DNA from: Trypanosoma brucei
Taxonomy: Eukaryota
Direction: 5' to 3'
DNA length: 64,000 nucleotides
Assembly (NCBI GenBank): GCA_000002445.1
Contig: CH464491.1
Span: 640,001-704,000 of the forward strand
Part shown: positions 13,467 to 39,462 of the stretch, piece after piece
Position numbering within the stretch: the stretch's first letter is position 1
How the letters are laid out: each line of letters begins with the position of its first letter
Translations under genes and position numbers: made by a program
The notes under the pieces: generated by a model
Databases searched by the model: none
What the model saw: only the letters and a program-made list of their open reading frames with translations
What the model was told of the DNA's origin: nothing

Positions 13467-13493
13467 ATATATATATATATATATATATATATA
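13467..13493. repeat. (AT)13 microsatellite
   Basis: Direct reading. Confidence 0.95.

Positions 13494-13798: not shown

Positions 13799-13800
<2 letters not shown>

Positions 13801-13829
<29 letters not shown>
13801..13829. repeat. (TA)14 microsatellite followed by a G11 run at 13866-13876
   Basis: Direct reading. Confidence 0.95.
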
Positions 13830-13833
<4 letters not shown>

Positions 13834-15302: not shown

Positions 15303-16010
15303 ATGTATGCTTCGCATAAAAAGGATATTAACCGCCACAAAAGTTTCCACCCACTGACGTTTCAAAACCTCAGCCGGGTGGAGCGTGGCCTCGAAAAGGA
15401 GGAAGAAAAGAAAAAAGCGAAGGAGCAACGCAATGCTGAACTTCTTCATGATCAGGAACAGCGTCGCTACGATGATCTCGTTATTTCCGCCTCCGGTGAT
15501 TCCATAGCCGCACGTGTTGCGAAGTTTAGACAAGTGGAAAATGTTTTTGCGGCAGAGGAGGATAAGCCCGCATTGCAGCCGGAGGCGGTTGCCGTGATGG
15601 GGCAGAAAACCAGTGCACTCACATTCCAAAAAGATCCATTGGAAGCGAAAAAATTAACGCAAAAACGTCAACGTGATGATGTTACCACGAAAAATGAGAA
15701 AGGCGGTAGCGAGGGGCAGAGTTTTGGCGGGGCTGGTAGAAAGGAAGAGGAGAGAAAAGTGAGTGGGAGTTTAGTGACGGGTTTCATAACAAAATCTGAT
15801 GCGGCTCAGTTGCGAAAAGAACTTGACAAACTTCAAAAAGAACGGCACGACCCCCTGCGGAGAGTTGAGCAGTTTCAGAATCGCACGGTTGCGGCTGAGG
15901 CCAAACGGCGGGCTCTTGAGGCACGTGCCGCATCAAACAATAGTCGCGGGGATTTGCAGAAAGATATCATACACAGTCGCCTGCAAGAACTGCTGGATAT
16001 GAAAAAGTGA
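15303..16010 (+). CDS. Small charged coiled-coil protein, hypothetical
   Basis: Open frame from 15273, first ATG at 15303 (MYASHKK). Lys/Glu/Arg-rich with predicted coiled-coil segments; no diagnostic motif. It sits in line with the plus-strand array, which supports it being real. Confidence 0.45.
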   Translation: MYASHKKDINRHKSFHPLTFQNLSRVERGLEKEEEKKKAKEQRNAELLHDQEQRRYDDLVISASGDSIAARVAKFRQVENVFAAEEDKPALQPEAVAVMGQKTSALTFQKDPLEAKKLTQKRQRDDVTTKNEKGGSEGQSFGGAGRKEEERKVSGSLVTGFITKSDAAQLRKELDKLQKERHDPLRRVEQFQNRTVAAEAKRRALEARAASNNSRGDLQKDIIHSRLQELLDMKK

Positions 16011-18483: not shown

Positions 18484-20344
18484 ACGCGTGCGTGCGTAAT
18501 TCACTCGCGTTATGTTCGCTTCGGTTCCGACGAAATTTCTGTCAGTTTGTTTGGTTGATGGTGAGGTGAGAGGTGGGATGAGTGTACCGAATGGAAGGTA
18601 AATAAAGTAAATGAATGGAGCAGACCATGGAAAACTTTCTGAGCGGCATTGCATGCTTGTTGCTCATTTTCTCCCACTCACCAGTCGCATCACCGTTATT
18701 TCTCATTATCACTCGCGATTTTGTATGATTCTTATTAACATTTTTCTGCGGAAGCGCAGACCTTTTACATACTGTGAATGAGTCAGTAGGGATTTGCATT
18801 GCGAACTCGCATGGCGCGGAGATGAGAAATGAATCACATCTTAAATATATAATGGCGAAGGATTATTTGGATGAATTTCGTTCTTTAGGCGGAGTGGGGG
18901 AAGCTTATTTGTCGTTGAAGTAAGGAAGCGGTGACGGTGAATGAACCTCAGGGCAATACCAGAAACATTCATTAATGTCTTTTCATGCATTTGCATCCCT
19001 TCAAATTATCCTCCTCCCTGTCGTTATTTGAGATCCTTTATTTGACACACTGCGTGCCAATGGTGGCTGTAGATACATCCATCTCGTAGTGAGGAGAACG
19101 CGATATTTAAAAAACTCTTTCGACGTAGCTGCAAATGCAGCGAGTAGTCAGGTGAGTGAAACATGTGCGTGAAAGACAGCGAGAGGCTCCAGGAGGTTAA
19201 ACAAGACCAAAAAAGAAAGGAATAGAGAAGGAAGTTTAAAGGAAAATAAAACAATGTGGATAACGGAATTTAAGGCTGATTATAGTGGTGTCTGCACATG
19301 AGGATTAAGGGCGGAGGCAAAGCGTGGGACTTGTGTTTTTGCAATGTTCCACTCACCTCTTTCACTTACCTATCCATTTCTCTTTTTTCATTTTTATTTC
19401 TTAAGCAGAGGATATAAATGTGAGGCCCACTACCAAATCACTTCCAACCACCTAAACCGTATACGACACAGAAGTTCACAATTTGTGGTTGGCGCTTTGA
19501 TCTGAAAGAAGGCGATTTATTATTGCCGTGGGGTGTGAGGGAATCGAGAGAAAAGGAAAAGAAAAAGCAGGAAAAGGAGGAGGAGAAATAGAAGGAGAAG
19601 GAGGGAGGGATTGAGTCTCTCCTTTAAGTGTGTAAGAGACTCTTCCCTCCCTTTTTTGATAACTATCACCGTATTATTCTCTGCTGCCTTTTGCTTTCAT
19701 ATTTAACGGTAAATGAATATTCCCCATTCTCTCCTCCGTCTTTGGATTCATTGTACTTTTTTTTAAAAAATTTCCCCCGCGACCGCGTGGTGCACGCCCG
19801 TACGCAACCCATTACTGTTGTTGGTGCTGTAATTTACATACCTACATGTGGATAACCAACACACGTATACTCGTATATATATATACATACATACATACCA
19901 GCGGTAACGGCAACAACGTGTGAAATCGTTACATTGTTAACGGCGTGTGCGTAGCGGCAGACGCAGTGCAGGAAGAGAGAAGAAAAAAAGGGGGAAAGGA
20001 AAAGGAAAGAAAAGGAAAAGAAAAGAAAAAGCAGCCTCCATTTCGAATCGGTGGAGCAACCGAAGTGTGAGTGCTGAAACGCTTTGCTACGGGCAAAGTG
20101 GAAGAAGAGAAGGAAGACAGATATAAATTAAAAGAAAAAAAAGGGAAGACACGTGCGTACATTTGTATTGTGAGGAGGGGAGGTACAAAAGAATAAGAAA
20201 TATAATAATCGAAAGGAAATAAATTGAGGATCTAAAGACAAAGATCTACTCAAGAAATCTTCTCTAAAAGAAAAAAGAAGAATAGAGAAAAAAGGAAAAG
20301 AATCCAAGGCGTCAATTAATAATAAGGTGAGTTTAAAGGGTTAA

Positions 20345-22072
20345 ATGCCCAACCCATACAGGAAAAACAAGGATACATCGCGTATACCGTGTGTCTACTT
20401 TAAAAGAGGGTCATGCGCGAACAAGCACTGCCCATTTCTTCATGTGCGTGGCGGTGAAAAAGTCGGACACGAACCTGGGAAAGCACCAGGGGATGTGGGG
20501 ACAAACCTTCTTTGTACGATGTTGAAGTTGGTGTTTGAGAAACAGCAGCAGCGGGTGTATAACGCGGAAACAGGGGTCTTGAACCTGACGCAGTTTAAGG
20601 AAATTCCTGACCTCACGGATGTGGCGGGATCCATCAACTTTAACACACAGGCTTTCTGCCAGGCATTGTGTTCGACAATAAAGTCGCTTATTGTGCCTCC
20701 TCCATCAGCAATTCAACTGAAAGGCAATGGCATATTGTCGGTGTCACATCTAGCGATGCAGTTGGAAAAGGCAGACCTTCATCTGACGCTTCGTGCCATT
20801 TCATTAGAAGCCAACCTAATCAAGTCGGTTGAGTCATTGCAAGAGTTGAAGAAATTCACCAACTTGCGGGAGATTGTACTGAGAGACAATCCTATCGCAA
20901 ATCGGAGCGACTATCGGACAACTATTAAGAAATTGATGCCGTCGTTAATTGGTTTAGATGGAGAGTCCATATGTGTGCCCCCTTTAAGTTTACCGTGGCC
21001 TCAGTTCTCTCCGACGGGATACAGTGAGGCGCAGAAGCATGTGCTGCAGTTCATACAATGCGGGTTGTTAAACCCACTGGAAGGCGACGGTGCTTCCGGA
21101 GTTGCACACGGTGTAGACGCTGTTTCGGACTTGTACGCGGCAAATGCGGTTTTGACCCTCTCCCTCTCTTCGCCAGAAGTTGCTGTAAGCACGCCCATGC
21201 GCACGATGAACGGTGCGGCGGGTGTGCCGCAACAGCGGAACGTAATCAGGGATATTGTGAGTCTTCGGTTAAAACAAACTGAAAGTAATCACAACCTTCT
21301 GCACGGTGTAAAGTCGACTGTTGTTGCGCTTGGTCGGACGAAGGTGTGTTCTCAGATGGAGCACTGGTTGTACCCAAAGACCTTTAGGGTTCATCATTAC
21401 CTCCATAGCAGCGCTAGCACCGTCTTTCTTGACAATTCGTACCTCACAGGCCCGTCGCCCACAGCGATGAAAGTACCCGTGACAATAGTGACACTCCATG
21501 GCACCATGACGTGGAACAACACCGGTGTACCGGGTGATGCGACAACTATTGGCCCAATGACCATTCGGCGCAACTTCACTCGTGTGTTAAGTGTTACACA
21601 AGGGGATGCGGGACGCTGGCTAATCACTAATGACATGGTGTCGTTGTATTTGACGCCGAGTGGGTCATCTGCATCGTCGAAAAGTGGCAACGGAGTGCCT
21701 GAAACGACTCAACTGAGCGAGTGCCGCATTCTGCTCGACCCACGCAGCGACCGTAGCCGTGCGGAGGTACTCAGCCGAAAGAAGGACGTACCGGTAGAGG
21801 TGATTATGGCATTGTGTCAACACGTTGGTAACGATGCGGAGTTATTTACCGTGTTGGATGATATCCGCGGCGTGCCACTCAGTGCCTTTGAACACTGTGC
21901 CAACCTAGCAGGGGAGAATATCATGGAAAGCATTCAGATGTGTCGTTTAGTGAATCTTTTCGGGATGGCACCACAAAATGCATTGGAGATGCTTAGGCAC
22001 AATAACGGTAACTGGAGTGATACTGTTGCTGCGGTTGCTGCTACCGCGCCTGTGGCGGCAGTCCCGCAGTGA
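20345..22072 (+). CDS. MEX67: mRNA export factor Mex67/NXF with N-terminal CCCH zinc finger
   Basis: N-terminal C-x7-C-x4-C-x3-H finger (CVYFKRGSCANKHCPFLH), followed by an LRR region (LREIVLRDNPI), an NTF2-like domain and a UBA-like C-terminus. The CCCH finger is the known peculiarity of kinetoplastid Mex67. Confidence 0.8.
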   Translation: MPNPYRKNKDTSRIPCVYFKRGSCANKHCPFLHVRGGEKVGHEPGKAPGDVGTNLLCTMLKLVFEKQQQRVYNAETGVLNLTQFKEIPDLTDVAGSINFNTQAFCQALCSTIKSLIVPPPSAIQLKGNGILSVSHLAMQLEKADLHLTLRAISLEANLIKSVESLQELKKFTNLREIVLRDNPIANRSDYRTTIKKLMPSLIGLDGESICVPPLSLPWPQFSPTGYSEAQKHVLQFIQCGLLNPLEGDGASGVAHGVDAVSDLYAANAVLTLSLSSPEVAVSTPMRTMNGAAGVPQQRNVIRDIVSLRLKQTESNHNLLHGVKSTVVALGRTKVCSQMEHWLYPKTFRVHHYLHSSASTVFLDNSYLTGPSPTAMKVPVTIVTLHGTMTWNNTGVPGDATTIGPMTIRRNFTRVLSVTQGDAGRWLITNDMVSLYLTPSGSSASSKSGNGVPETTQLSECRILLDPRSDRSRAEVLSRKKDVPVEVIMALCQHVGNDAELFTVLDDIRGVPLSAFEHCANLAGENIMESIQMCRLVNLFGMAPQNALEMLRHNNGNWSDTVAAVAATAPVAAVPQ

Positions 22073-23969: not shown

Positions 23970-26711
23970 ATGTCTCTTAGCGCCTTACGGTCCAAACGCA
24001 CCGTAAATGATATTTGGCCTGTCCGTTACAAACGTTTTTTTGTATTGACGGACCCTCAGAATATCATAGGAGAAACCACCGACGGACTGGCAACACTCAC
24101 AACCATTTCTTATCTACTGGAAAGGGAAGCTGCTGTTGTGGTTGCCTCATCCTTTGGCGACTTGAAGGGCATTCCTCTCAGTTTTTCAAGGGGACAGCGT
24201 GAGGAGGCGATTGAAATATTTCGAACTGAGGGTGGCATGGGATACACCAACTACTTCAACTCGCTTCCCATAAACCTCAAGGCAGAGGTTCTCAAGGTCG
24301 CAAACGGATGCGAAACACCCGTGGATTCCGTAACCCTATCTCCTGTGGAAGTAAATGGTGCATTTGCAGCGCTTTCCATACGTCAAAAGGCTGCTGCTCT
24401 TCACAATGTGTTTCCACGAGTGGAATTTTCTCAGTGCTCGACTTATGCCTTCGTGCGTGAACTCACCAATCGTTTCCCCACTGTCCCTGTGAAATTCTCT
24501 CCCGATCCGCTGAATGCCCCGATCAGTCAGCTGAAGCCGGGGGAAATACTGGTGCTTGAAAATTTAAAGTTTTACCAAAATGAAATTTCACCGAACCATG
24601 AAGAGCGTGTGGCGATGGCTGAGGTTTTGGCGTCCTACTGTGATTACTGTGTTAATGAATCCTTCGCAACAGTGTGTGCCGTCCACGCCAGTAACACCGA
24701 GTTACCCAAGATCCTCTACCATGGTGCTGCTGGTTTTTCCATGGAAAAGGAACTCGCCTTCTTCCTCAGCTTCCTCGCCCACCCTCCTCGTCCCATTGTT
24801 GTTGTTGTGGCCGGAAGGCAGTCCTCAAAAAAACTCCGTATGATTCGCAGTTTGGTTGGAAAAGTTGATAAGATTCTTGTGGCGGGTGCGTTGATCATGC
24901 CTTTCCTAGCAGCTAAGGGCCTTACAACTGACAAGTCTTTCAACAACTCCGAACGGGTGGAACGAAGGCGGCTGAATGAAGCCGCCGAAGTGGAGGAGCT
25001 GTCGGTACCTTGTGTTGGGTTTGCTCAAGAAATTATCACATTGTGTGAGAAAAACGGCGTTGAGTTGGTTTTCCCCGTGGACCACGTCGTGACAAGGAGG
25101 ATCACAAAAGCTACGGAGGACTCTGCGGCTATTGTTGAGTCAATTGCGGTCCCTTCGGATGTCTATGCTGTGGATTGCAGCGCGAACACGATCGCACTTT
25201 TTACGAAGTGTATTCGCCCTTGTCAGTGTGTCTTCTGGACTGGAACCTTTGGCTGCACGAGAATGGGCTATTCCGAGGGAACATATGCCTTCGCTAGGGC
25301 TCTGGCGCAACAAGGGAAGCTTTCTATTGTCAGTGGCAACAGTACGGCTTGTGTGGTACGGCAACTAGGGCTAACTTCCCAGTTCTCGCACATCTCAAGT
25401 GGCGGCAGCACGTGCCTGGATGCGTTACAGGGGCACCACCTTCCTGGTGTAGAGATGCTTTCTGATATTCCTGTGGCAGTGGACGTCAGGAGTTGCATAC
25501 TAGCAGACGATCTTCTCCGAAGCTTACCCCTCTTCTCGAACTGCTCTTCACACCAACTTAAGGCGGTAGCGCAGAAGTTTGTGCGGCGAGTCCATGCCTG
25601 TGGTGATTACCTGACGTATTATGGGGACAAGCACGCATGCATGTGGGTTGTTGCGAGCGGTGGGCTGGTGGCCCGGAGTGGTGACACCACACTAACTCTC
25701 CCTTCGCGTTATATCGGACGGGGACAGACGGTTGGTATGTACGGTTTCATCACTCAAAGCTTTGCAACAGATACAATTCAAGCGGCCGAAGACGAAACGG
25801 TCACATACCAGCTGACATTCTCCTCCCTCCAAGATCTCTTCAACGAGCAATCGGACCTTGCAGCGCAGCTCCTCCAAAACGTGTCAGAAACATTGCGGGT
25901 CATGGCAATTGAGGAGTATCGTGAACAGAGCTCTATTATGAACGTGCTGAGGCGTGCGGCTTTGTGCTCTCGGTTTCCCACATTCCTTGCTATACCAAAG
26001 GATTGGGGTTTCATGGAAGACGTCATTCAGGATATCATTTCGGGCACCGTGCTGAGTGGAATAACTCAAATATGCACGGGGCAAACGGCACTTTCCTCGC
26101 CTCGGACGTTTTCATTGGGTCTGGGTTCATCTACTTCCAGAGGTCACATGGTCCACTGCCTTTGCCGAGTAGTATTACGCGATTTGCTGTACCACAAGCT
26201 TATCGAGTACGGCATAATGCCTGCCACCTGCATTTCCTCCATTATTCTTTCCCCGTTTCGACTGAGGGCAATGGGTATGATGTGGAGCGATGTTACGTGC
26301 AAAGCCATGTTGGATGAAGCGCTGCTGTTGGCTGTTGAAATGTGCTCCCCTATTGCTGCGCACGGTACATTTCTTGTGGTGCAGCGCCGAATCGAAGTAT
26401 TACTGAGGCGGAAATGCGCCACCATCGTCAAGTTCTTCCTCACTGCACTGGTTGACGTCGGGTTTGGGTTCGTGTTGTTTCCGCTGACGTTTCACCGCCG
26501 TACAAGCGAAGCCATATCGCTTCCTGACCTTTTCCGTTCCAGTGTTTTTAAGCGTCACCAATGGAAAGTAGTGCTGCTTCTGGTATTACGGTGTGTGGTG
26601 CATGTGCTTTTGAATGGCGTCCGCAGAGTTCATAGGTTTTGGGTGATTAAGAGAAAATCCGAAAGTGGCTGCAACCTGACACCACAGCGGTTGCCCCGAG
26701 TAACAAAATAG
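23970..26711 (+). CDS. Phosphoglycerate-kinase-like domain fused to a cyclic-nucleotide-binding-like domain and C-terminal transmembrane helices (PGK-like protein, probably non-catalytic)
   Basis: The N-terminal ~470 aa are collinear with the PGK fold (KRFFVLTDPQN...; ILVLENLKFYQNE; FWTGTFGCTRMGYSEGT; IVSGNSTACV...ISSGGSTCLDALQGHHLPGV). The canonical RVDFNVP and HLGRP substrate-binding motifs are replaced. A cNMP-binding-like segment lies around aa 500-640 and several hydrophobic helices around aa 700-880. Confidence 0.7.
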   Translation: MSLSALRSKRTVNDIWPVRYKRFFVLTDPQNIIGETTDGLATLTTISYLLEREAAVVVASSFGDLKGIPLSFSRGQREEAIEIFRTEGGMGYTNYFNSLPINLKAEVLKVANGCETPVDSVTLSPVEVNGAFAALSIRQKAAALHNVFPRVEFSQCSTYAFVRELTNRFPTVPVKFSPDPLNAPISQLKPGEILVLENLKFYQNEISPNHEERVAMAEVLASYCDYCVNESFATVCAVHASNTELPKILYHGAAGFSMEKELAFFLSFLAHPPRPIVVVVAGRQSSKKLRMIRSLVGKVDKILVAGALIMPFLAAKGLTTDKSFNNSERVERRRLNEAAEVEELSVPCVGFAQEIITLCEKNGVELVFPVDHVVTRRITKATEDSAAIVESIAVPSDVYAVDCSANTIALFTKCIRPCQCVFWTGTFGCTRMGYSEGTYAFARALAQQGKLSIVSGNSTACVVRQLGLTSQFSHISSGGSTCLDALQGHHLPGVEMLSDIPVAVDVRSCILADDLLRSLPLFSNCSSHQLKAVAQKFVRRVHACGDYLTYYGDKHACMWVVASGGLVARSGDTTLTLPSRYIGRGQTVGMYGFITQSFATDTIQAAEDETVTYQLTFSSLQDLFNEQSDLAAQLLQNVSETLRVMAIEEYREQSSIMNVLRRAALCSRFPTFLAIPKDWGFMEDVIQDIISGTVLSGITQICTGQTALSSPRTFSLGLGSSTSRGHMVHCLCRVVLRDLLYHKLIEYGIMPATCISSIILSPFRLRAMGMMWSDVTCKAMLDEALLLAVEMCSPIAAHGTFLVVQRRIEVLLRRKCATIVKFFLTALVDVGFGFVLFPLTFHRRTSEAISLPDLFRSSVFKRHQWKVVLLLVLRCVVHVLLNGVRRVHRFWVIKRKSESGCNLTPQRLPRVTK

Positions 26712-27069
26712 AGGGTATTAACGCATATTTCAGGAAAAAACACATGCCCAAACCCAGAAAGAGGGGAACTGAGCTCCACAATCTGAATAAAAGGCGATGT
26801 CACAGTTTCTCTCCACTTCATTCACACGAAAGCGTGGTTAGCGATGCGTGGACAATTTGATCTTTTTTCAGCACTTACGTGTGCATGTCCACACTTGAGG
26901 TTATCCATGGAAATTTATGTGTAATTACTGTAGTTTATGGTACGCAGTAATTTCGCGGCGAAGGCTGCCTGAAAGCCTTCTCCGTTGCCTGTTTCAGTGC
27001 AGTTGTTAGCCGAAACAGCAGATATGCCGAAGCCGTTCCTGCGAAATGTTTCACCGGATCACGTAAGAC

Positions 27070-27630
27070 GTGGAACTCAAGCGGAAATTTGACCTTCGTT
27101 TCATCGTGGCAGTAAATTCCTTTACGTCGGAGCATTCCTCCTCCATGGAGGCGTACGTCTATAACACTTTCTGGACTCGATTTGCGCTAAAGGAATATTC
27201 ACTCGACGATTTTGACTGCTACGAAAAGCACTGGACGGTTATGAATTACACCAACCCCGAGGCATTGCTTCAGTTGCATGACCATGACTTTGTGAAAGAG
27301 TTTAACGAGGAATATGCCTCGAGTGGTTACGGTGAAGCAGCATGGGAAAAAATTGCATATCCGAAGATTCTGAAAATGCTTCGTGAAGCATTTGGCATGG
27401 TGGTAACGAGGGGTGGGGATCACAGTCGATGCCGTGCGATGTATGGTGTGGATGTTATGCTACGGACGGAGCGCTGTGTTGAAACGGGCGCTTTGACACT
27501 TGAGCCTTCGTTACTCGAAATCACCTTCAGTCCGGACTGCCGTCGCGCCTGCAAATATCATCCAACGTTCTTCAATGACATTTTCCACACACTTTTCCTT
27601 AGGGATCCAACGAACATGACACCACTGTGA
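27070..27630 (+). pseudogene. Inverted partial duplicate of the 3' end (last ~184 codons) of the TTL gene at 41679-43619; gene fragment
   Basis: 100% amino-acid identity to the C-terminus of the 646-aa TTL (RKFDLRFIVAVNSFTSEHSS...TNMTPL). Nucleotide identity begins abruptly at 27079. An ATG (MELK) exists only in the unique junction sequence. Upstream sequence is unrelated to TTL. Confidence 0.65.
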
Positions 27631-27853
27631 GCTATTTCATTGGAAACATTTTTCTTCCATCATCATTTATGTTGCATGTGGATTTCCATCAGAACTTTGT
27701 CACAGAGTGGTGTTGCTTAACATCAATTTTGTGTGAACCCAGATATATATGCGTATGTATGTGAATGTGTGTGTTCCCTTATGCCTATGCTTCTACCCTT
27801 TTTCTTTTTCCTTTCAGTAATATCTCAGCTTTCAGGATTACAATCAATAAACA
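27079..27853. repeat. Outer inverted-repeat arm (left), ~99% identical to reverse complement of 41444-42230
   Basis: Direct comparison: coding part identical; the intergenic part shows one substitution and one small T-run indel. Confidence 0.85.
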
Positions 27854-28015
27854 AGCGGACAGAGAGGTGGCTCGGGAGGAAAGCCTTTGCGGACAGTGCG
27901 AATTTCTGATTTTCACGTAATCATTCTTCGGGGAGGGGGAGAGACTGTTATTTACTGTCTATATAAGCGTTGATCCCAAAGTAATAACAGTAAGAAACAT
28001 ATAAGATATATCATT

Positions 28016-28672
28016 ATGGGTTGTGGCGGTTCCAAACCTAACGCGGTAAGCAGAGATGTGGAGGAGAAGGCTCTGTATCTTCGTGGTATCAAAGAATCAA
28101 TCGATAAGGCAGAGGGAAACATGCTTGCCACTCTCCATGCCCTGCAGGCGTTGATGAGATCATATGAATCCACTTCATACTCATTTGTTGAGCTTGCACA
28201 CGGTACGGACGGCAATACATCATTGAAGGCGAAGACATTTGAGTCTGATATGCGGACACTAAAAGACAGTGGCATCATGCCGAAACTGCAAAAGGACCTC
28301 GGCCAGTCCGTCAGTTCCTTGGGAAAAGACATCAGGGCAAAACATGACAAAGCGAATGTGGTGTACAGAGAAATGACACAAGCCAATGACGCGTACTGCA
28401 AGTTGCGCGAGCGAGTTAACGGCATAGAGAAGAGTTACGCCAAAAAAAACAAGCCCGTAAGTGAGTGCCCTTCGTACACAAAGAATTGTAAGGAACGTGA
28501 CGTCTGCTTAGCCAGGTATGAAGGACTTAAAAAAGTTTTCCTGACGTTGGTGGAAGAGCTGAGGACTCTCATCCGTTCCTATGTGACTGCAGGGCTTACG
28601 CGATACGCCTTCTCTACTGCGGATTATGCGCAACAGTTGGTGAATAGTCTCCAGAAGTACAAATCCGAGTAA
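28016..28672 (+). CDS. Small dually acylated (MGCGGS N-myristoylation/palmitoylation motif) helical protein; possibly flabarin (flagellar BAR-like protein) family
   Basis: 218 aa with an N-terminal MGCGGSK (Gly2, Cys3) motif. Predicted all-helical/coiled-coil. Paralogous (about 45% identity) to the minus-strand ORF 40733-41401. Last gene of the plus-strand array. The flabarin assignment comes from recollection of a flabarin/flabarin-like pair next to TTL in T. brucei. Confidence 0.5.
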   Translation: MGCGGSKPNAVSRDVEEKALYLRGIKESIDKAEGNMLATLHALQALMRSYESTSYSFVELAHGTDGNTSLKAKTFESDMRTLKDSGIMPKLQKDLGQSVSSLGKDIRAKHDKANVVYREMTQANDAYCKLRERVNGIEKSYAKKNKPVSECPSYTKNCKERDVCLARYEGLKKVFLTLVEELRTLIRSYVTAGLTRYAFSTADYAQQLVNSLQKYKSE

Positions 28673-30011
28673 TTAGCGCAATGAGCAGAAACATGGACTT
28701 AAGATGCAGTTTTCAGACAGGCAATAAAAAGGGGGAAAGGGAAAAAGGTATACATTAAAAAAAAAAAGAGGAAAGGGGACGTGGGGACGGAAGAAACTGA
28801 TTTTATGTTCGGTTGGGATGGGCGGGTTCCATTCCAGTCCCCCCTAGTAGCGGTGAATTTTTTTTTTTTTTGGAGGAGGGGGGGGACGGGAAAATAAGTC
28901 GTTTAGGTGACAGGTGTGTGGACGAGCCGCCGTGCTTATCATTCACATTTTAAACACGGGTTCTGCCGCATTTAAGTTTCGTTTTGCTTCCGCTTTGGTG
29001 TTCTGAAGGTGATGTTTTTTTTTTCTTATATTTTGACTTATGCAATCGGGATCATTTCCTTTTTTGTTCTCGGTGTATGTGATTTTGTGTTTGGCTTCCT
29101 TTTTTTTTTTTTTTTTCTTTTTTTTTTTGGTGTTTCTTTTTCGAATATCTCTACCCCACTTTTTTTCTGTTTGACACATCGTTTAAGTTGGGCTGTGCGT
29201 TGATGATGAAAAATAGATGCTTACCGCTGCTCTTTCCGGTTTTTTTTTCAGCTCCAACGTTGCCGTTACTTGTTGTAGCATTTGTTCTATTATATTACTA
29301 GAGCTATGAATAGATAAGACATGGGAGTAATCTGCCTAATCTTTACTGTTTTGTTTTGTTTTGGTCCCTGAGTATTAGGCGTGCGTGTGTGCGTGCCCAC
29401 ATATGTATTTAAAAAAAAAAAATAGTAATGAAAGACCTACACCTGTTTGTTCCCTTTCCTCATTGTTTCCTCTTTTTTTTTTCTGAGGCACCTTACAAGG
29501 TTTATGCGAGGGGCAGGTTGTTCATTTCACACGAAAAATCGCTATTATATTAGTAAATAATGTTTGCTGTTTCCACCTCCTGGAAAAAAAAAAGGGAGGA
29601 AAAGATATATGTAACAAAATAAAGTAAGAAAATTAAAAAAAAAACAACCTTCCGAAAATACATACAGAACACGGAACATATCCGTCAGAGAGGAGCTCCA
29701 TTATTGGAACATTCTTTTTCTTGCTTTTTCGTTTATTGCAGTGCTGTTGTTCGACCGTTGCGAATAAAAGTGACTAAAAATATATTCTGTCTTCTTCCAA
29801 CATTTTTCTCGTCTTTCTTTTTTCATTCACATGGGGCACAACATGCTTTACCAACAGATGATATTTCGACGAATCAAAAGACAACAGCGCGTAAGGCACA
29901 TACAACGTTAAGGGCAAGAAAAAAAAAAGGGAGGGGGGGGGCGGAAAGTAAATAAATTGCGGCAGCATTAACCATTTAGCGGTTAAAAAGAAGGAAGTGA
30001 ATAATCAAAAA

Positions 30012-30036
30012 AATAATAATAATAATAATAATAATA
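30012..30036. repeat. (AAT)8 microsatellite; a similar (AAT)7 lies at 40105-40125 in the same orientation
   Basis: Direct reading. Confidence 0.9.
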
Positions 30037-30415
30037 AGTAAGGGGAATAAATATGGCATTGATATTAACAACAACAATAATATAATTATTAGTATTATTT
30101 GTGAGCCGCTGCGAAGCAGGTTTCTAAATATAAACTCGCCGTTTCCACGCCGAATTTTCACATGGTGCGCGGACTCATCCGAGGTGTACCCGTGAGGTGC
30201 GGTATTTGCCGTTTAAAACATCCCTCATGTTTCTTTCCCAACTCGTTAAAAAAAATATATATATATAGCCAATGGATTTGCGTAAACTTCTGCAGACATA
30301 TCGCTCACCGCCAAATAATACCGCGGTGCAATTTCTCATACACGTGACTTGTGCTGTCGGGGAAAAGACATTTTTTTATTTTTTTTTGCACACTTCGAAA
30401 AGAAAAAAAAATTTG

Positions 30416-32137
30416 CGTTACCCGCTACCGCCATTCACGGCGAGGAAGCTGAGTTTGCCAGAAGATCCGTTTTCTTATCCTTTTTATTTTCTTCCCCTTT
30501 TATGTAACTGTTGAAAAACTCATTGTGCCACCTTTGTTATTCTGCAGAACACCAATGCTTCATAAGTCGACTGGGACCTTTTAATTGCTTTTCGAAATAT
30601 GGTGACGTTTTGGTTTCGTTTGCAGCATTGGGGGAGTAGAATAATGGTCATTAACTGAGGGAAAGATGTTGACGCGCTTCTTATGTTCCCTTTGGGCGTA
30701 TACTGCATGGTGATGGGTTTCTTCTTGTTCCAACAACTTGGAGAGCTTTAGAACTCGTCGCACTAGCTTCAAAATTAATAAGTGCGTTTGTTTCCCTTAT
30801 CTGCGACTTTGTCCGCTAATTCATTTTCCTTCATGCCGCAACTAAAAAAAAAAACAAAAAAACAGTAAATTTTGATATCACCGCGTTGCTACTAATGAAC
30901 GTCGGAACTGACCACTATATAACACACACAAAAATATTCCATCTTCCACCCGATGTGGAAGATGCCTTAAGAGAAATAGTGCCTGCCAATGCCTGCGATG
31001 TTATCCACGACGAAGGTTTGTCCTTCATTATTTATTTATTTATTTTAGTAGCCTATTCAACCATACCCCCACCACCACCAATTCCGCACGATAGCTGCTG
31101 CCCAACCTCCCAGCGCCCCTATGCTGTTTTATCCTTTTTTCCCCACCCGATTAAGGCGATGGCGGTCACACCCGGCGAAATCCTTTTCTCAATCCACCTT
31201 CCCCTTTGCAATGTGTGGGTCCTCTTCCCGCCGTCCAGTTCGTTAGCCTTCAAGTCTTCCAGTGCAAATGTTTTGATATAAATTATTGGGATGGGAGGCT
31301 CACCATGTTTTCCTCACGGAAAGGGAAGCCAGTTATCCGTTTCGAACCGCCATCTTTCCGCTGAACTGAGCCGCTTGTGAAGTGTTTTTTTTTTTTGTTG
31401 CAGGGATATGGCCGCATCCACGTATCGGGAAACTGGCCCTCTTTGGCCCTGAGTGTTCCGCAATATTCGATCATCCCTTTGCGCACCACCTTCCCCGCAA
31501 ATTCCCCAGCCGCGGTTCTTCAGCTGTGCTTGCTTATTTGGGCCGAGTGGAAAACCACCCGGCACCTGCACCATAACATATTCTCATTCGAACGGGGCCC
31601 AAACAGAAGGTTCGCGGGGTTTTGCACCCTTGGTTCCTACTGAGCCGGCGCTGTCACCCTTCGTCTTCAGTAAACTTGCCTTTTCACACTAAGCCGTTTG
31701 TTTCGTGTGTTGCGATGTCACTTTTATTGATTGGGAAGCGGGTGCCAGAAGGTTTGGGGGTTTTGCTTCTCTTACCCGCCCCTTCCCGCCACCACGGGAT
31801 ACGGTGAGTTCCGAGCGCACACGCCAAGTGCCGTATAATGTTGCATTCCCCAGTTGCCGGTTCTGTGGCCCGCCCCTCTGACCGCTGGAAAACGTGGTTG
31901 AGTTGTCGCTGCAGTTAATTTTCAGAGACTTCTACATTCCCGCAAGTGCATTCGATTACTTTTTTTCTTTTGTTAATCGGTGTGCTATTCGGCAATGTTG
32001 GTCAGTGAGAGCCCTTTGGCAAAGAAGATAGGGGCAATCCCAGGGCAGGTATGCGCCGTATGGAATTACACTAATCGTCGCAAGTTTCAACGATAACATT
32101 ATCAAGAATTATGAACTGAGAACCAACTTTGTATATT
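30416..32137. repeat. Inner inverted-repeat arm (left), 1.72 kb, ~99% identical to reverse complement of 37741-39462
   Basis: Mirror-image ORF pairs in the six-frame track (30886-31281+ vs 38597-38992-; 31622-31807+ vs 38071-38256-; 30581-30772- vs 39106-39297+). Nucleotide comparison shows only scattered substitutions and homopolymer-length differences. Confidence 0.9.
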
Positions 32138-32167
32138 TTGGAGGTGCGCAGGCAACGTTGAGTGAAT

Positions 32168-32179
32168 TATTCAGGGGAA
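32168..32179. repeat. Target-site duplication (TATTCAGGGGAA), 3' side of ingi
   Basis: Identical 12-mer at 37434-37445 immediately flanking the other end of the element. Confidence 0.8.
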
Positions 32180-32452
32180 TTTTTTTTTTTTGGAATTTTC
32201 TTCGTGCCTTCGTGGGAGTTTCCCCCCACTGGCGCGGCCATCAGCCATCACCGTAGAGCCCTGAGATGCTATCGGTCTGGCGACTGTGGCAGAGTCTCCC
32301 TTTTTTATTCATCCTAACACTCCCTCTATAATTTTTGTTGTAGCTCCGCAGTTGAACGGAATACAGCAGATGGGGCAAGAGGCCCCCCACTCCGGACTCT
32401 CCAAAAGATGTCAATTAGCAATCCTTTTGTTTTGATTTTTGTTATTCGTTTA

Positions 32453-34162
32453 TTATTCTCTCCCCCTCTTTCTGTTTCTGTTGCTTGTTGACTGCATACC
32501 TCCTCTGTCTCTGAGGGTGTCTGGACTATTCCTGCGTCCGGTGCTTTTCCTGCTGGCTCCACACTCGGCAATAAGGGGGGAAGTTGCAGAAGGGAGAGTG
32601 GGTTGTATGACTGTTACCTTAGGTGAGGACTTCACCTGTGGCCGGCTCCGTTCAACCGCAATGAGAAACTGCGCCAGCCTTTTGGAGAAACATACATCCT
32701 GCACACACACACCTTCTACCGCAAACCTGACACGTAACTCCTTCAAACCGGGACAGCTCATCAAGTGCAGCGACGTTTCTTCGCAGTCGCCGCGTTGGCT
32801 GGTAACAGCGCGCTCTACCTTCATACCGTGCATCTTCTTTTGATGTAGGGTGAGGCCAGTTTTGCTAGCACACTGCCTTCCGCATGTCGGGCACACCAAC
32901 ATGGATGCTTTTGTATGCGGGGAATCAGTGGCACAAAATTTTGTGCTTTTGCTGCATTTAAGCTCGACTCCCTCACCTTTGTGGAAAGCCTTGCAGTGTC
33001 GGATGAGGGAGTCCCTGCAACTGAGCACTTTTTGGCACACACCACACTGCACCTCGCCTTTCCCCGGGACGTCAACGTTTCCCTCACGGGCACGCTTACG
33101 AGGGAATTGCACCAACACCACGGTACCGTCCTCCGTCACTATGCTTTTATGTTTGAATTTCTTGTGTAGTGTCAGGGAAGAACGTGTACCGAAGCTCGCC
33201 TCGCACAGGTCACATTGAAACGGCAGCTTCCGTGTATCCTGAGAGGCTGGCGCTGCTGGGGCTCTACCATCTCCTTGCAATGAGTCCTCGTTCTCTCGCC
33301 CCCTTTTCACGCGGCAACTACCGCTGCCTATGCCATGTATTGTTCTAAGGTGGTGTAGTAGTCGGCCTGGCACTGCGAATTTGGAGGCACAGATGGTACA
33401 ATGAAGCACCTGCGGTCTCATCGGGACTCGTGTGCTCGATGGTAGAGGAACGATCGCCACCACTGGAGGGGGCTCCGGGGGGATATCCACTGCAGGTGTT
33501 GCATCGCCGTATTTGATCCTCCGGAGGGCATCAGCTCGCACAAAGCCATGTTTGTTTACCATGTGCGTTACAGCACTCGAGCGGCATTGGTATGTGGCAT
33601 CACATTCCGTACATTTGGTCGGTTCGGAGGTTCTCTGAAGAGTGCGTGTCGCAACAGTTGGGGCCGTTTGTATTGTTGGCCCTATCGCTGCATGTTGCGG
33701 GTTACACCATCGGCACTGTGGAGGCACACTCGGGTTGATCTTTCGCAACATCCATCCATAGTGTCTTGAAGACCCAACCCGAAAGCGTGCCAGTGCCGTT
33801 TCTTCTTCCCTCGTCAGTTCTTCTTTATGTTTTGTTGGAAAGTGGTTGCCCGTGATACCAAACCTATGAGTGTTCTCATGGACTTCTTCCGACCTAAGCA
33901 CTCGCTTCGCATAAGCAATGATGTCGGGGATCCATGTATCTCGCAACTGTGGTAAATCTGCGGCCTTTTTGGCCATTTCATCGCAAACCTCATTCCGTTT
34001 CACGCCACAATGGCCAAACACAAATTGCAGTCGGATACGTATCTTCCTTCTCTGAACTTGAAGCAGAAGCCTCCATAGTCGTCTTAGAATTGGGTCCGTT
34101 ACGGCTAGGGGGCCTGTCTGCAGTGCTGTTAACATTGATAGAGAGTCAGAGAAGATGGACAA
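32453..34162 (-). pseudogene. ingi ORF, 3' portion (RNase H remainder and C2H2 zinc-finger domain), different frame from the 5' portion
   Basis: C2H2 fingers (CTICASKFAVPGRLLHHLRTIHG; CDLCEASFGTRSSLTLHKKFKH; CGVCQKVLSCRDSLIRHCKAFH; CPTCGRQCASKTGLTLHQKKMH). The frame differs from 34288-37425 by +1. Confidence 0.8.
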
Positions 34163-34287
34163 CCTGCTCGGTGTGCTTCTGTATGCCAGAAGCCATTTCA
34201 GCAGCCGTTGCAGTCCTATCTCTAATGCTACGCATTCCGCTCTGTAACTGCATGAGAGTTCCCCTGCTCCGGTCTTGGGTGCACAAA

Positions 34288-37200
34288 TCAGCGCTTGTTT
34301 CTATAGAGCAGGGCAGCTGCTCCGGACTTCTCACCGAGGGACACGGATCCATCAGTCCACAATTCGTAGTGCTCTCGCCGCGGTGGCTCCTTCCCCCTCC
34401 GTGCAAAATGCCGTGCAATCCACTTTTCGGAAGCCTCCCTTTTGACATCGTCAGGGTCATCAGCGCACACAGGCTTTATCTGCGTGTGAAATAGTGGTCG
34501 GCAGCTGTGGCGGAGCGTCGATGTCTCTAGTGGGTGCTCGCGTGGCTCAATGCGGAGGTGGGGGTAGAACCGCATGATGCGGGAATGTGAGGCTCTGTCT
34601 GGGTGTTTGCTGTGGTATACTTCTTCAGCACTGCGCCGCAAACATCCGCCTCGTGACTCACACATCAGCATGAATTTCATGCTGCGCACAAGAGTGGTCG
34701 TCTTGAGTGGCAGGAGGTTTGCTTCCAGCAGAGAGTCCTCTTTGCGTGTCCCATGGGGTATGCCAGCTATGATGCAACTGGCTTTGTGTTGTGCTGCTGC
34801 AAGGAGATCGCGACTTCGTTCCGAAGCGTCCCAGTACCATACCTCAATGCCATACATGGTGTGTGCCTGTACGAGTGCTAGATAAAAAGCTCTCAGCACT
34901 TGTCGTCTTGGCCCCCATGTAGAAGCTGAGATGGCTGCTATCTGCAGTAGTCTGAAGTCCATCTTGCGTCTCGTTTCGGTCGTATGTGTTGCCATCCCTT
35001 GCAGACACTGGAATGTTACTCCTAGAAGCTTCGGTGTCCTGTCAGCTCCTATTCTTTCGCCGTCCAGTTGTAATGTAAGGGGGTGGCGCTCTATACACCC
35101 GAAGAGTTTGCACTTTGTTTTCGCTACGTTGACAGACATGAAATACTCTTTTGACCACTGTAACACCACGTTGAGACCGCATTGTAGTGTGTGGTTGATG
35201 ACATCCCTCTCGGTGTGCCTCGCAAGTAGCGTTAGGTCGTCTGCAAAGAATCCGTGCTGCAGTAACGGCACTTCTACAAGCCGCTGGCTCAACGAGTTCA
35301 TGACAATAATGAACATGATTGGGCCAAGGACAGTTCCTTGTGGCACTCCTCGCTCAAATGTTCTGCTTCTGGAAAGCTTCTCCTTGAATCTCACTCTGCC
35401 AGTTCGGTTACTCAGAAATGATACGCACCACTTCACAATGTGGGGTGATACCTTCATTCTGTGCATTTCCCTCGCAATTCTGTTGTGTTCTACTGTATCA
35501 AATGCCTTCTCGTAGTCAACGAATATAGCACCCGTACGAGATTGGTGCGTGGGACGGCAGAGGGCAGCGCGGACGTGCAGGAGTTGTTCGAGCGTTGAGC
35601 ATCCGCGGCGAAAGCCTGATTGCTGCGCCGTCAGCTGGGACTCAACAGTGTCTCTAAGCCTCGTGGCAATTATGCGCTCCATGACTTTGCATAGACAGCT
35701 CGTGAGCGTCACAGGCCTGTAAGAATCGAGGTCCTCCGCCTTTTTTCCGGCCTTCAGGATGGGGATGATAACACCAATCTTCCATGCAGGCGGCACGACT
35801 CCCGTTCGTAGGCTCTCATTGAATAGCCTCAGAACAACATTCAGCGCTGTTCTGCCGAGGTGTTGTAGTGCCTCGTTGTGTAAGCAATCAGGTCCGGCTG
35901 CGGATCCACTCGGTAGCAGTTTGATCGATCTCCGTAGTTCAGCCATCGTGATGGGACTGAACTCACTCGCTATCGTCTTTATTGGTGCCGGTGGGTGTGA
36001 GTCGGGGTGTCTTCTTGCGCGGGACGAGTACAGTTTAATGAACCTCTCAGCTTGACAGTAGTCCGTGATGGCCGCGTTATCAACAAGTACAGCCGGTGTG
36101 GTTAGTGGTCGTGGCGCATATACCTTCTTGACAATGTGCCAACTGCAGCGGTCTGACACCGCAAGTCTGGAGCATAGCGTGCTCCATCTCTTCTTTGTGG
36201 TACGGTCCAGGATCTGCTTACGCGTGGCTACCAACTTTTCCCTTCGGTGGGAGGGTCCGCATCCAGCGATCTCTTCATCGAGTTTCGCGAGCTCAGGTGT
36301 CCAATGTGGTGGCGTTGCTCTGCAGCCACGGGGGACGGAGACCTTCGTCGCAATGCGGATGGCGGAGCTCAATTTCTGTTCCAGGGTGTTGACGTTCTTC
36401 TCTCTACCAATTTTCCTGCAGAGCTCGTCAACCTTGAGACGGAAATTCCTCCAGTTAGCTTTTAGCCATGCGTACATGGGCTTTCGAAGCCGCGGGCAAC
36501 TCAGTGCATCTGTGTCGTCTCCAACGATAACGTCGAAAAATATGTGATGGTGATCGCTATCGGGAGAATACAGCGATGTCCACGTGTACACTGTGCAATT
36601 CCTTGACAGTGTCACATCAGGGGTGGACTCCCCGTGGTGGCGCGCGTACCTGGTGCACTCACCAGTGTTGCAGACCAGAAACTGGTTGTCAATGCACCAC
36701 TGTGTGAGGGTTTCACCCTTGGTATTTGGTGGGCTCGCGCGATCCCATGCCAACGCGTGTGCGTTAGCGTCTGCACCGATGAGCTGGGCACCGTCAGTCG
36801 TCAGAAGCGTATCTAGGTCAGTTGCCGTGAAGGTGTGTTTTGGTGGGATGTATGCCGACGTGACAGTCAGCGCCGTTCCACGTGCAAGGTGAATTGTTGC
36901 ATGCACTTGTTCAATGCGACCAATAACGGCCATACCGGTCTCGACTGGTAGGTCCTCCCTCACTAGTATTGATACACCACCTCCTTTGCAGTTACGAGCT
37001 ATTCCGTAATGTTGGTAGCCAGCAACGCTAAAGCAAGCCGCCTCTCCAGGCGTCATCCTTGTCTCGCTCAACAGACAAAAGGCGATCCGCTCATCAACAA
37101 GGGTTTTGTGGAGTGCTAATCTCTTTCCTTGAGATAGCCCGACGCAGTTCCACTGCATCCCGCGCAACGACGGGCCGGGATTCTCTTCCACATCACCGGA

Positions 37201-37425
37201 CAGCAGCATCTTAGTGCGGATGATACTGCTGATGGCACGCTGGCACGTGCCCAGGGACCGACAAATGAAAGACGGTGTCCCAGCAAGACGCTGCTGATCC
37301 CTGTGCTGTATGATGCCGTAGCCGGAGCACAGCAGTGTTCCCCATGAAAGGAACGCTGCTGGCTCTTGGCTTCCCCCGATGATACGGGGTACTGGACCCT
37401 GGCACCACGTTGAGGTGGCCGGCAT
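34288..37425 (-). pseudogene. ingi ORF, 5' portion (2A peptide, APE-like endonuclease, reverse transcriptase, start of RNase H); frame broken near 34162-34288
   Basis: ATG at element position 9. RT motifs (VTLTSCLCKVMERII; FVDYEKAFDTV; FFADDLTLLA). RNase H DGS motif at the C-terminal end (ELWTDGSVSLGEKSGAAALLY). Confidence 0.8.
37161..37184 (-). other. 2A-like co-translational 'self-cleaving' peptide motif (DVEENPGP) near the N-terminus of the ingi ORF
   Basis: Translation SGDVEENPG|PS, the canonical D-x-E-x-NPGP 2A signature. Confidence 0.75.
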
Positions 37426-37433
37426 CGCCAGGG

Positions 37434-37445
37434 TATTCAGGGGAA
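37434..37445. repeat. Target-site duplication (TATTCAGGGGAA), 5' side of ingi
   Basis: See 32168-32179. Confidence 0.8.
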
Positions 37446-37740
37446 CTGCGCCCGCAGAAAATAATACACACAAATGGGAACTGCCCGGTCTTGGCAGAAG
37501 AACTTAAACACTTCCCGCTATCACTTTAAATACTGCGAGCCACGCTGTCACAACGAGACAACGGGGGCTCCAACCCAAACGATCCAGGGCCGGAGTTACC
37601 GCGCAATTGATTGGTGTAATAAACGGGGGAGGGCCAACCAGAGGAGGCAGCGGTAATATTTACTAAATGCAAAATGGTATTAATCCAGTGGGTCATTGAT
37701 GCGGCATTGCGGCGCTAAAGGGCTGCGCAGCGGGCCCCTT

Positions 37741-39462
37741 AATATACAAAGTTGGTTCTCAGTTCATAATTCTTGATAATGTTATCGTTGAAACTTGCGA
37801 CGATTAGTGTAATTCCATACGGCGCATACCTGCCCTGGGATTGCCCCTATCTTCTTTGCCAAAGGGCTCTCACTGACCAACATTGCCGAATAGCACACCG
37901 ATTAACAAAAGAAAAAAAGTAATCGAATGCACTTGCGGGAATGTAGAAGTCTCTGAAAATTAACTGCAGCGACAACTCAACCACGTTTTCCAGCGGTCAG
38001 AGGGGCGGGCCACAGAACCGGCAACTGGGGAATGCAACATTATACGGCACTTGGCGTGTGCGCTCGGAACTCACCGTATCCCGTGGTGGCGGGAAGGGGC
38101 GGGTAAGAGAAGCAAAACCCCCAAACCTTCTGGCACCCGCTTCCCAATCAATAAAAGTGACATCGCAACACACGAAACAAACGGCTTAGTGTGAAAAGGC
38201 AAGTTTACTGAAGACGAAGGGTGACAGCGCCGGCTCAGTAGGAACCAAGGGTGCAAAACCCCGCGAACCTTCTGTTTGGGCCCCGTTCGAATGAGAATAT
38301 GTTATGGTGCAGGTGCCGGGTGGTTTTCCACTCGGCCCAAATAAGCAAGCACAGCTGAAGAACCGCGGCTGGGGAATTTGCGGGGAAGGTGGTGCGCAAA
38401 GGGATGATCGAATATTGCGGAACACTCGGGGCCAAAGAGGGCCAGTTTCCCGATACGTGGATGCGGCCATATCCCTGCAACAACAAAAAAAAACACTTCA
38501 CAAGCGGCCCAGTTCAGCGGAAAGATGGCGGTTCGAAACGGACAACTGGCTTCCCTTTCCGTGAGGAAAACATGGTGAGCCTCCCATCCCAATAATTTAT
38601 ATCAAAACATTTGCACTGGAAGACTTGAAGGCTAACGAACTGGACGGCGGGAAGAGGACCCACACATTGCAAAGGGGAAGGTGGATTGGGAAAAGGATTT
38701 CGCTGGGTGTGACCGCCATCGCCTTAATCGGGTGGGGAAAAAAGGATAAAACAGCATAGGGGCGCTGGGAGGTTGGGCAGCAGCTATCGTGCGGAATTGG
38801 TGGTGGTGGGGGTATGGTTGAATAGGCTACTAAAATAAATAAATAAATAATGAAGGACAAACCTTCGTCGTGGATAACATCGCAGGCATTGGCAGGCACT
38901 ATTTCTCTTAAGGCATCTTCCACATCGGGTGGAAGATGGAATATTTTTGTGTGTGTTATATAGTGGTCAGTTCCGACGTTCATTAGTAGCAACGCGGTGA
39001 TATCAAAATTTACTGTTTTTTTGTTTTTTTTTTTAGTTGCGGCATGGAGGAAAATGAATTAGCGGACGAAGTCGCAGATAAGAGAAACAAACGCACTTAT
39101 TAATTTTGAAGCTAGTGCGACGAGTTCTAAAGCTCTCCAAGTTGTTGGAACAAGAAGAAACCCATCACCATGCAGTATACGCCCAAAGGGAACATAAGAA
39201 GCGCGTCAACATCTTTCCCTCAGTTAATGACCATTATCCTACTCCCCCAATGTTGCAAACGAAACCAAAACGTCACCATATTTCGAAAAGCAATTAAAAG
39301 GTCCCAGTCGCCTTATGAAGCATTGGTGTTCTGCAGAATAACAAAGGTGGCACAATGAGTTTTTCAACAGTTACATAAAAGGGGAAGAAAATAAAAAGGA
39401 TAAGAAAACGGATCTTCTGGCAAACTCAGCTTCCTCGCCGTGAATGGCGGTAGCGGGTAACG
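37741..39462. repeat. Inner inverted-repeat arm (right)
   Basis: Reverse complement of 30416-32137 at ~99% identity. Confidence 0.9.

Follow-up and report, generated by a model that had tools for sequence, protein, structure and literature searches.

In Trypanosoma brucei, small interfering RNAs (siRNAs) that depend on DCL2 and are bound to AGO1 come from seven large inverted repeats, from every one of 49 surveyed convergent units and from two annotated pseudogenes, and the ingi retroposons form the largest siRNA class (PMC3447711). For the two convergent units that were tested, mRNA levels were unchanged in dcl2-/- cells, and the high identity of the inverted repeats was remarked upon as unexplained (Tschudi et al., 2012; PMC3447711). 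FlabarinL and Flabarin, which are specific to the bloodstream form and the procyclic form, respectively (PMC5078803), are 38% identical in protein and go back to an old duplication dating to early African trypanosomes (PMC5078803; PMC3785460). Here we describe a locus that contains both of these genes, within a 64-kb stretch of chromosome 11 of T. brucei brucei TREU927 that was identified by exact protein look-ups; the whole stretch is referred to as the window, and positions are counted along it. In the window, a copy of the 3' end of a TTLL12-type gene constitutes the outer edge of a composite palindrome, which straddles a convergent strand-switch region. A literature search found no paper describing this palindrome, searches for Tb927.11.2390 and Tb927.11.2420 gave no main-text matches, and the palindrome would seem to bring the large inverted repeats of the T. 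brucei core genome from the seven listed to eight. With a probability of roughly 70%, we regard the fragment as a truncated TTLL12 relic at the edge of the palindrome, which is kept like its parent by recombination between the arms and does not regulate TTLL12.

A preliminary description of the window had recognised an inverted copy of the 3' part of a TTL gene, and self-BLAST places it at the same site: positions 27078-27853 on the plus strand align to 42231-41453 on the minus strand over 779 columns with three mismatches and one 3-nt gap (E=0), the identity of this outer repeat being 776/779 nt or 99.6%. The value of "730 nt, 100%" returned by a repeat finder is rounded, as that stretch holds two mismatches. 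The left arm carries the last 183 codons and the stop codon of the gene (27078-27630), followed by 223 nt of its 3' flank (27631-27853, and not the ~280 bp estimated initially), and the right arm (41453-42231, minus strand) is the 3' end that belongs to the gene itself, together with its 3' flank. The copy opens at the KRKFDLRF codons, corresponding to about residue 463/464 of the parent, and its protein is identical to the parental C-terminus, so that both the identity and the abrupt start near RKFDLRF were described correctly. The "perfect identity" claimed for the copy thus stands for the protein but not for the nucleotides: the coding part contains a single, synonymous difference (GAC/GAT, 27579 versus 41730), and the flank contains mismatches at 27726 and 27804 as well as the 3-nt indel, which lies within a T/C run.

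The parent gene (41679-43619, minus strand; EAN79213.1) encodes a protein of 646 amino acids, in which Pfam finds SET_TTL at residues 75-215 and TTL at residues 336-637. Since it combines a SET-like TTL domain with a TTL domain and its orthologues carry the name TTLL12, the product is best classed as a TTLL12-type protein rather than the canonical tyrosine ligase; the former label "TTL" was right as to the family but not as to the subtype. The fragment matches only positions 114-281 of the 292 positions of the Pfam TTL profile (PF03133) and does not contain the SET-like domain (PF25556); it is a piece of a TTL family member and not a member itself.

The fragment is a DNA-level duplication. The copy runs past a polypyrimidine tract, an AG and 36 nt of the next 5' untranslated region (UTR), and it ends without an A-run; inclusion of this downstream intergenic sequence rules out a processed (retrotransposed) pseudogene. 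On the other side of the junction, at 26712-27077, no decayed TTLL12 homology was found, as 166 of 200 shuffles scored at least as high as the observed local alignment and tblastn returned nothing. The junction is therefore a sharp duplication breakpoint, and the same shuffle-level score and empty tblastn rule out an older, larger duplication that has since decayed.

The outer repeat is part of a larger structure with arms of 5060 nt (27078-32137) and 4491 nt (37741-42231), which from the outside inwards consists of the outer repeat, the diverged FlabarinL/Flabarin pair, an inner repeat, and an ingi at the centre. In the inner repeat, the left arm (30416-32137, plus strand; self-BLAST), which contains no recognisable gene or RNA family, matches the right arm (39462-37741, minus strand) over 1722 nt with 12 mismatches (99.3%). 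Global alignment of the arms gives random-level identity before 27076, ~100% over 27078-27853 and ~99% over 30416-32137. Between these blocks lie FlabarinL on the left arm (28016-28672, plus strand; 218 amino acids, Tb927.11.2400, an exact match to EAN79212.1) and Flabarin on the right arm (40733-41401, minus strand; 222 amino acids, Tb927.11.2410), the coding regions of which share 44-59% ungapped nucleotide identity, and the 3' UTRs of the two arms cannot be aligned at all. Both inverted repeats are at least 400 bp long, have an identity of about 99% or more and lie on a megabase chromosome, as published for siRNA-producing repeats.

All open reading frames (ORFs) of at least 250 amino acids up to 26711 are on the plus strand, and the 218-amino-acid FlabarinL ORF extends this array to 28672; from Flabarin (40733) rightward the genes are on the minus strand, as are the two central ingi ORFs (32453-37473). 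The plus-strand array, with Mex67, a PGK-like gene and FlabarinL, and the minus-strand array, with dynein, TTLL12 and Flabarin, thus converge around 28672-40733, which is therefore a convergent strand-switch region. The ORF strands also agree with the initial placement of the fragment within the plus-strand array.

The centre of the palindrome is occupied by a full-length ingi, a non-long-terminal-repeat retroposon of 5254 nt (32180-37433, minus strand), which is recognised by its RVT_1, Exo_endo_phos_2, RNase_H and zf-C2H2 domains (Pfam), by a poly(A) tail visible as a T-run from 32180, and by a duplicated 12-bp target site (TATTCAGGGGAA; 32168-32179 and 37434-37445). Its coding capacity is divided between two ORFs (32453-34162 and 34288-37473). 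The site is empty and intact in T. b. gambiense DAL972 and likewise empty in T. equiperdum IVM-t1, so that only the TREU927 lineage carries the insertion. When the ingi is removed, the TREU927 centre (32138-32179 + 37446-37740) aligns to the DAL972 centre (14051-14828) over 825 nt in the inverted orientation only, and the central spacer of IVM-t1 shares the TREU927 orientation and is inverted relative to DAL972. The inverted spacer reflects either a crossover between the inverted arms or a mis-orientation in one of the assemblies.

To follow the palindrome through related genomes, the locus was compared with T. b. gambiense DAL972, T. equiperdum OVI and IVM-t1, T. vivax and T. cruzi; T. congolense, in which the TTLL12 orthologue is CCC94833.1, was not among them. 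In DAL972 the equivalent locus lies at 661-668 kb and consists of an outer repeat of 757 nt with 2 mismatches, an inner repeat of 1645 nt with 1 mismatch and a 778-nt spacer that is free of ingi. T. equiperdum OVI, which retains FlabarinL (SCU68835.1), is represented by a 2619-nt contig that equals the unique FlabarinL segment (window 27822-30447) and breaks at both repeat edges, and two Logan read-set contigs likewise start at 27824; these contig ends imply the same palindrome in OVI. Given the same architecture in DAL972 and its implied presence in OVI, the palindrome is not an assembly artefact but real and common to the Trypanozoon genomes examined. T. vivax and T. cruzi each have one TTLL12 gene, and neither a TTL fragment nor an inverted repeat was found within 10 kb of the syntenic site, synteny with both species being only partly conserved.

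The flabarin genes of these two outgroups occupy different positions. The single flabarin of T. cruzi (contig 18615-21986) follows the PGK-like gene, as FlabarinL does in T. brucei, and that of T. vivax (contig 12413-13126) follows TTLL12, as T. brucei Flabarin does. A crossover in the outer arms would swap the Flabarin paralogs between the arrays while keeping their direction of transcription, and position may therefore not indicate orthology.

A rearrangement is seen in T. equiperdum IVM-t1, where the palindrome is a single uninterrupted inverted repeat of 4500 nt with 99.89% identity and a 306-nt spacer (contig 11389-15887 / 20690-16194). The 222-amino-acid Flabarin is present on both arms and FlabarinL is absent, and by sequence FlabarinL thus appears to have been overwritten by a second copy of Flabarin. 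This event may explain why FlabarinL was noted as missing in T. equiperdum, which has been ascribed to genome incompleteness or secondary loss (PMC5078803; PMC3785460).

Comparison of seven arms from four genomes provides further signs of exchange between the arms. In the inner block, 12 sites carry a derived, lineage-specific variant on both arms, and no site distinguishes left from right across the strains. In the outer block, two variants (27726 and alignment column 726) differ in their placement between strains, as the arm that carries them in one strain is not the one, or not the only one, that carries them in another, and a third (27579) is specific to the right arm in two strains. In TREU927 and IVM-t1 the homology extends 19 nt farther than in DAL972: these first 19 nt are TTLL12-like in the former two but diverged, with a 2-nt deletion, in DAL972, as expected of conversion tracts that vary in length. 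Within one genome, the divergence between the outer arms is 0.26-0.39%, compared with 0.2-0.85% between TREU927 and DAL972 in unique flanks, so that the difference between arms is similar to or below the divergence between the strains. Together with the inverted spacer, the variable edge and the homogenisation of the whole arm in IVM-t1 as structural signs of recombination, these patterns indicate that ongoing arm-to-arm recombination probably keeps the arms alike, strongly so for the palindrome as a whole and suggestively for the TTLL12 block alone. Gene conversion of the fragment had already been proposed in the preliminary description, and this proposal gains support from the concerted inner-block sites, the outer-arm variants, the variable edge and the homogenised 4.5-kb arm of IVM-t1. 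The inner left arm of TREU927 shows a pattern of its own: of the 12 positions at which the TREU927 arms differ, every one is a left-arm variant, and they cluster in about 900 nt (30567-31451); these variants occur on no arm of any other strain compared. The cluster could possibly be a tract from a divergent haplotype or from an unseen third copy.

The extent of the outer repeat suggests what was duplicated. In trypanosomes, a polypyrimidine tract guides both the trans-splicing of the gene that follows it and the placement of the poly(A) site in the RNA that precedes it. A sequence scan finds a 20-nt polypyrimidine tract with an AG at 27796-27817 on the plus strand, which presumably provides FlabarinL with its spliced-leader acceptor and sets the poly(A) site further upstream, and a mirror tract of 23 nt with an AG at 41513-41489 on the minus strand upstream of Flabarin. 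Tract and AG (AG at 27816 / 41490) are located 199 nt upstream of the FlabarinL start codon and 88 nt upstream of that of Flabarin, and the outer repeat ends 36 nt past them. On the best reading, the duplicated block is therefore the upstream processing region of Flabarin, of which a copy came to lie before FlabarinL and brought a piece of TTLL12 with it. Should the AG at 27816 / 41490 be in use, the two Flabarin paralogs would have the tract, the acceptor and the first 36 nt of the 5' UTR in common despite being expressed in opposite stages, and stage control would consequently reside downstream, in the unalignable 3' UTRs.

From these observations the following course of events can be proposed. 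The TTLL12 piece would have been copied in inverted orientation along with the 3' UTR of its parent and with both signals preceding Flabarin, polypyrimidine tract and AG acceptor, so that the copied block now precedes FlabarinL, the breakpoint having happened to fall inside the TTLL12 coding sequence. Arm-to-arm gene conversion and an occasional crossover would then hold the block at about 99.6% identity to its parent, while the coding regions and 3' UTRs of Flabarin and FlabarinL remain different, presumably by selection on their opposite stage-specific expression. Under normal polycistronic transcription the fragment would be present in sense only, either as a short mRNA with a 161-amino-acid ORF or as part of the 3' UTR of the PGK-like gene, and its block would in practice contribute RNA-processing signals for FlabarinL and not act on TTLL12.

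The architecture of the palindrome, the strains in which it occurs and the traces of recombination are direct observations, whereas the absence of a regulatory role for the fragment is what we infer. Several points weigh against the reading of the fragment as a relic that is maintained by conversion and has no effect on TTLL12. The outer repeat has just four varying substitution sites among the seven arms, of which two favour exchange, while the pattern at 27579 is what simple inheritance of an orthologous right arm would give. Most of the data on the outer repeat would also follow from one recent homogenisation just ahead of the Trypanozoon radiation, with no need for ongoing conversion. Both the homogenisation in IVM-t1 and the inverted spacer could have come from errors of assembly, as a segment flanked by identical 1.6-kb inverted repeats is difficult to orient. 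The selection acting on the Flabarin islands is presumed, as is the use of the shared acceptor, which follows from the known coupling of trans-splicing and polyadenylation. Finally, siRNAs against TTLL12 may arise as a regulatory by-product of the locus.

The latter point leads to the alternative that survives best, although we consider it unlikely, namely that the locus is a hairpin or antisense source of siRNAs: polymerases that do not stop in the strand-switch region would run on to the opposite arm, the resulting RNA would fold on the 0.78-kb outer repeat or pair with TTLL12 mRNA, and, after dicing by nuclear DCL2, siRNAs bound to AGO1 would lower TTLL12 mRNA. The arms have the geometry that such a mechanism would need. 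They are 13.6 kb apart in opposing polycistrons, and this layout agrees with the earlier statement that normal transcription yields sense RNA only and that antisense RNA arises just by read-through. Antisense RNA to TTLL12 requires read-through of at least ~13.6 kb beyond the last gene and across the strand-switch region, and a fold-back hairpin requires at least 15 kb in one RNA in TREU927 and ~10 kb in DAL972. T. brucei has a working RNA interference (RNAi) pathway, and siRNAs come from all seven large inverted repeats, 49/49 convergent units and two pseudogenes (PMC3447711). Moreover, a convergent region of chromosome 11 at 669,438-679,992 was reported with 3229 reads per million (RPM) of small RNAs (Reynolds et al.; PMC4721609, S2 Table), and because of its position and the DAL972 equivalent at 661-668 kb this region is most likely the present locus. 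However, the interval corresponds to the centre of the palindrome and probably contains the ingi in the reference, and small-RNA reads were mapped with all alignments reported (PMC4721609); the 3229 RPM would thus be dominated by retroposon siRNAs and therefore say nothing about the TTLL12 arms.

The read-through RNA would also have to cross the termination zone, two inner arms, the ingi and an antisense Flabarin gene over at least 15 kb, and the two convergent units tested showed unchanged mRNA in dcl2-/- cells (PMC3447711). The locus is in neither the list of seven inverted repeats nor that of 49 convergent units, in which the nearest units on chromosome 11 are at 447-456 kb and 1180-1186 kb (PMC3447711), and the supplementary tables of Reynolds et al. 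contain no Tb427tmp.22 or TTL entries (PMC4721609). Identity with Tb927_11_IR7 was considered and ruled out, since IR7 lies at 4.22 Mb (4,222,111-4,229,999, as listed separately in the table of Reynolds et al.; PMC4721609) and the present locus near 0.66-0.68 Mb; the CTU50 and IR3 probes gave no match in the window. Since recombination already accounts for the near-identity of the arms, this near-identity is no evidence of selection on pairing. An antisense or hairpin role on TTLL12 is thus possible by class-level precedent, with a low prior. In a more elaborate and decidedly improbable form, the outer repeat could act as a read-through sensor, such that weakened termination (through low base J/H3.V, or with the life-cycle stage) yields a 0.78-kb stem, from which DCL2/AGO1 siRNAs lower TTLL12 mRNA. 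If true, TTLL12 would be the first ordinary housekeeping-type gene under endogenous RNAi in T. brucei, and the identity of the arms would be under selection in addition to being homogenised by conversion.

Less probable than a hairpin or antisense source of siRNAs acting on TTLL12, in our view, is that a single recent inverted duplication, or a one-off homogenisation before the Trypanozoon radiation, accounts for the outer repeat, the fragment being young and not maintained. The differences in the outer repeat are mostly private to one arm of one strain and in this sense star-like, neither T. vivax nor T. cruzi has the fragment, and no decayed TTL homology precedes 27078 (166/200 shuffles at or above the observed score), all of which would be expected from such an event. 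A single event does not account, however, for the two outer variants that are found on different arms in different strains, nor for the 19-nt edge difference, and it is at odds with the concerted evolution of the inner block after divergence and with the whole-arm event in IVM-t1. We therefore favour continued exchange between the arms.

There is little to recommend the idea that the fragment is translated into a functional C-terminal piece of TTLL12 of 161 amino acids, which might compete for the partners of TTLL12. Three subspecies have the ORF intact, and it is annotated as a protein: in TREU927 it runs from 27145 to 27630 on the plus strand, beginning at the first in-frame ATG ("hypothetical protein, conserved"; EAN79211.1/XP_828323.1), the identical product is annotated in DAL972 (CBH17147.1), and IVM-t1 has a variant that differs by one residue (RHW68198.1). 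Candidate polypyrimidine tracts with an AG are found upstream at 26806-26831, 26861-26870 and 26976-26996. By contrast, the new in-frame ATG (MELK) at the junction, from which a product of 186 amino acids had been predicted, does not exist, as codon 27070-27072 is GTG and is preceded by a TAA at 27064-27066; the "M" at 27070 is an artefact of ORF calling with the bacterial code. Furthermore, an intact parent that converts the fragment keeps the ORF open automatically, so that an open frame is no sign of selection.

An enzymatic role of the product is also unlikely on the basis of its sequence. The alignment with TTL structures (8ASN/3TIG, residues ~139-200), in which the stretches of the central domain were tested as WI[AS]K and RKFD[IL]R, places WISK at residues 418-421 and RKFDLR at residues 464-469 of the parent, and the annotated fragment ORF starts at Met486 of the parent and thus lacks both. 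The two stretches serve to bind ATP. Because of their loss from Met486 onward and of the partial coverage of the TTL profile, the fragment would not be a ligase; its product is devoid of the SET-like domain and of the N-terminal and central ATP-grasp parts, and by itself gave no PDB match. Taken alone, the fragment is an already annotated relic (Tb927.11.2390-type entry, EAN79211) and unsurprising. An assembly artefact, that is, a mis-joined or duplicated contig end, for which the old identifier of Flabarin, Tb11.22.0001, might hint at a contig boundary in the region (its neighbours presumably carry Tb11.02 identifiers), can be dismissed, as the same junction is found in DAL972, in IVM-t1, which we take to be a long-read assembly, and, judged by contig breaks, in OVI and two Logan read sets, and as the arms differ at a few positions in each genome.

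Of the neighbouring genes, the PGK-like gene (23970-26711, plus strand; EAN79210) precedes the fragment and encodes a protein of 913 amino acids that weakly matches a cyclic-nucleotide-binding domain and is extended at the C-terminus by a long hydrophobic stretch; the 3' UTR of this gene may reach into the TTLL12 fragment. On the opposite side, the parent gene is flanked by a dynein heavy chain gene of 4307 amino acids (44586-57509, minus strand; EAN79214). Farther left, between plus-strand genes, the segment 11870-15260 is AT-rich (G+C 0.36) and contains long (TA)n, CA-rich simple repeats and short imperfect inverted repeats, and is probably an ordinary intergenic low-complexity region. The window contains no tRNA genes, and no Rfam match at E<=0.1 was obtained over 22000-45000, which includes the inner repeat; a non-coding RNA gene in the inner repeat or elsewhere in this interval was rejected on these grounds.

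The comparative evidence for recombination between the arms bears on a question that Tschudi et al. found puzzling, namely what keeps the inverted repeats of T. brucei nearly identical. At this locus, conversion can evidently homogenise all but the mature-mRNA parts of two paralogs with opposite stage regulation, and can erase one of the paralogs, as in IVM-t1. The locus also allows the regulation of a normal trypanosome gene by endogenous siRNAs to be tested, since the boundary of the repeat within the TTLL12 coding sequence provides an internal control. On the practical side, reads, RNAi constructs, CRISPR guides and probes for the last 550 nt of TTLL12 or for its 3' UTR also match the fragment, and constructs against the 5' flank of FlabarinL or Flabarin match both arms.

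In the hairpin RNA (hpRNA) loci of Drosophila and the pseudogene siRNA loci of mouse oocytes, the arms lie close together and are co-transcribed from one promoter. In the present palindrome, by contrast, 13.6 kb separate the arms, which belong to opposing polycistrons and would come together in read-through RNA only. The resemblance to these animal systems, which are cited in PMC3447711, is that an inverted partial gene copy could give double-stranded RNA targeting the mRNA of its parent. Closer to hand are IR1-IR7 of the same organism (PMC3447711), with which the palindrome shares kilobase inverted repeats of at least 99% identity, kilobase spacers, a location on megabase chromosomes and the RNAi machinery; it differs from them in being composite, with two blocks of high identity around a diverged pair of paralogs, and in that one block holds part of a protein-coding gene.

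With respect to evolution, the nearest likeness is to the palindromes P1-P8 of the human Y chromosome, which have near-identical inverted arms with a unique spacer, arms that evolve in concert, inversions of the spacer, and arm genes that are lost or gained by conversion (PMC6790999). The arms in T. brucei, however, measure kilobases and not tens of kilobases to megabases, they belong to a mostly asexual protist, and the palindrome sits where transcription converges and tolerates a diverged island with paralogs that are 38% identical in protein. The same two genes, their neighbourhood on opposite strands and their duplication in African trypanosomes were described in the FlabarinL/Flabarin papers (PMC5078803; PMC3785460), whereas the inverted repeat, the TTLL12 fragment, the common upstream processing signals and the conversion are unmentioned there, the word "inverted" having 0 occurrences in the FlabarinL paper (PMC5078803).

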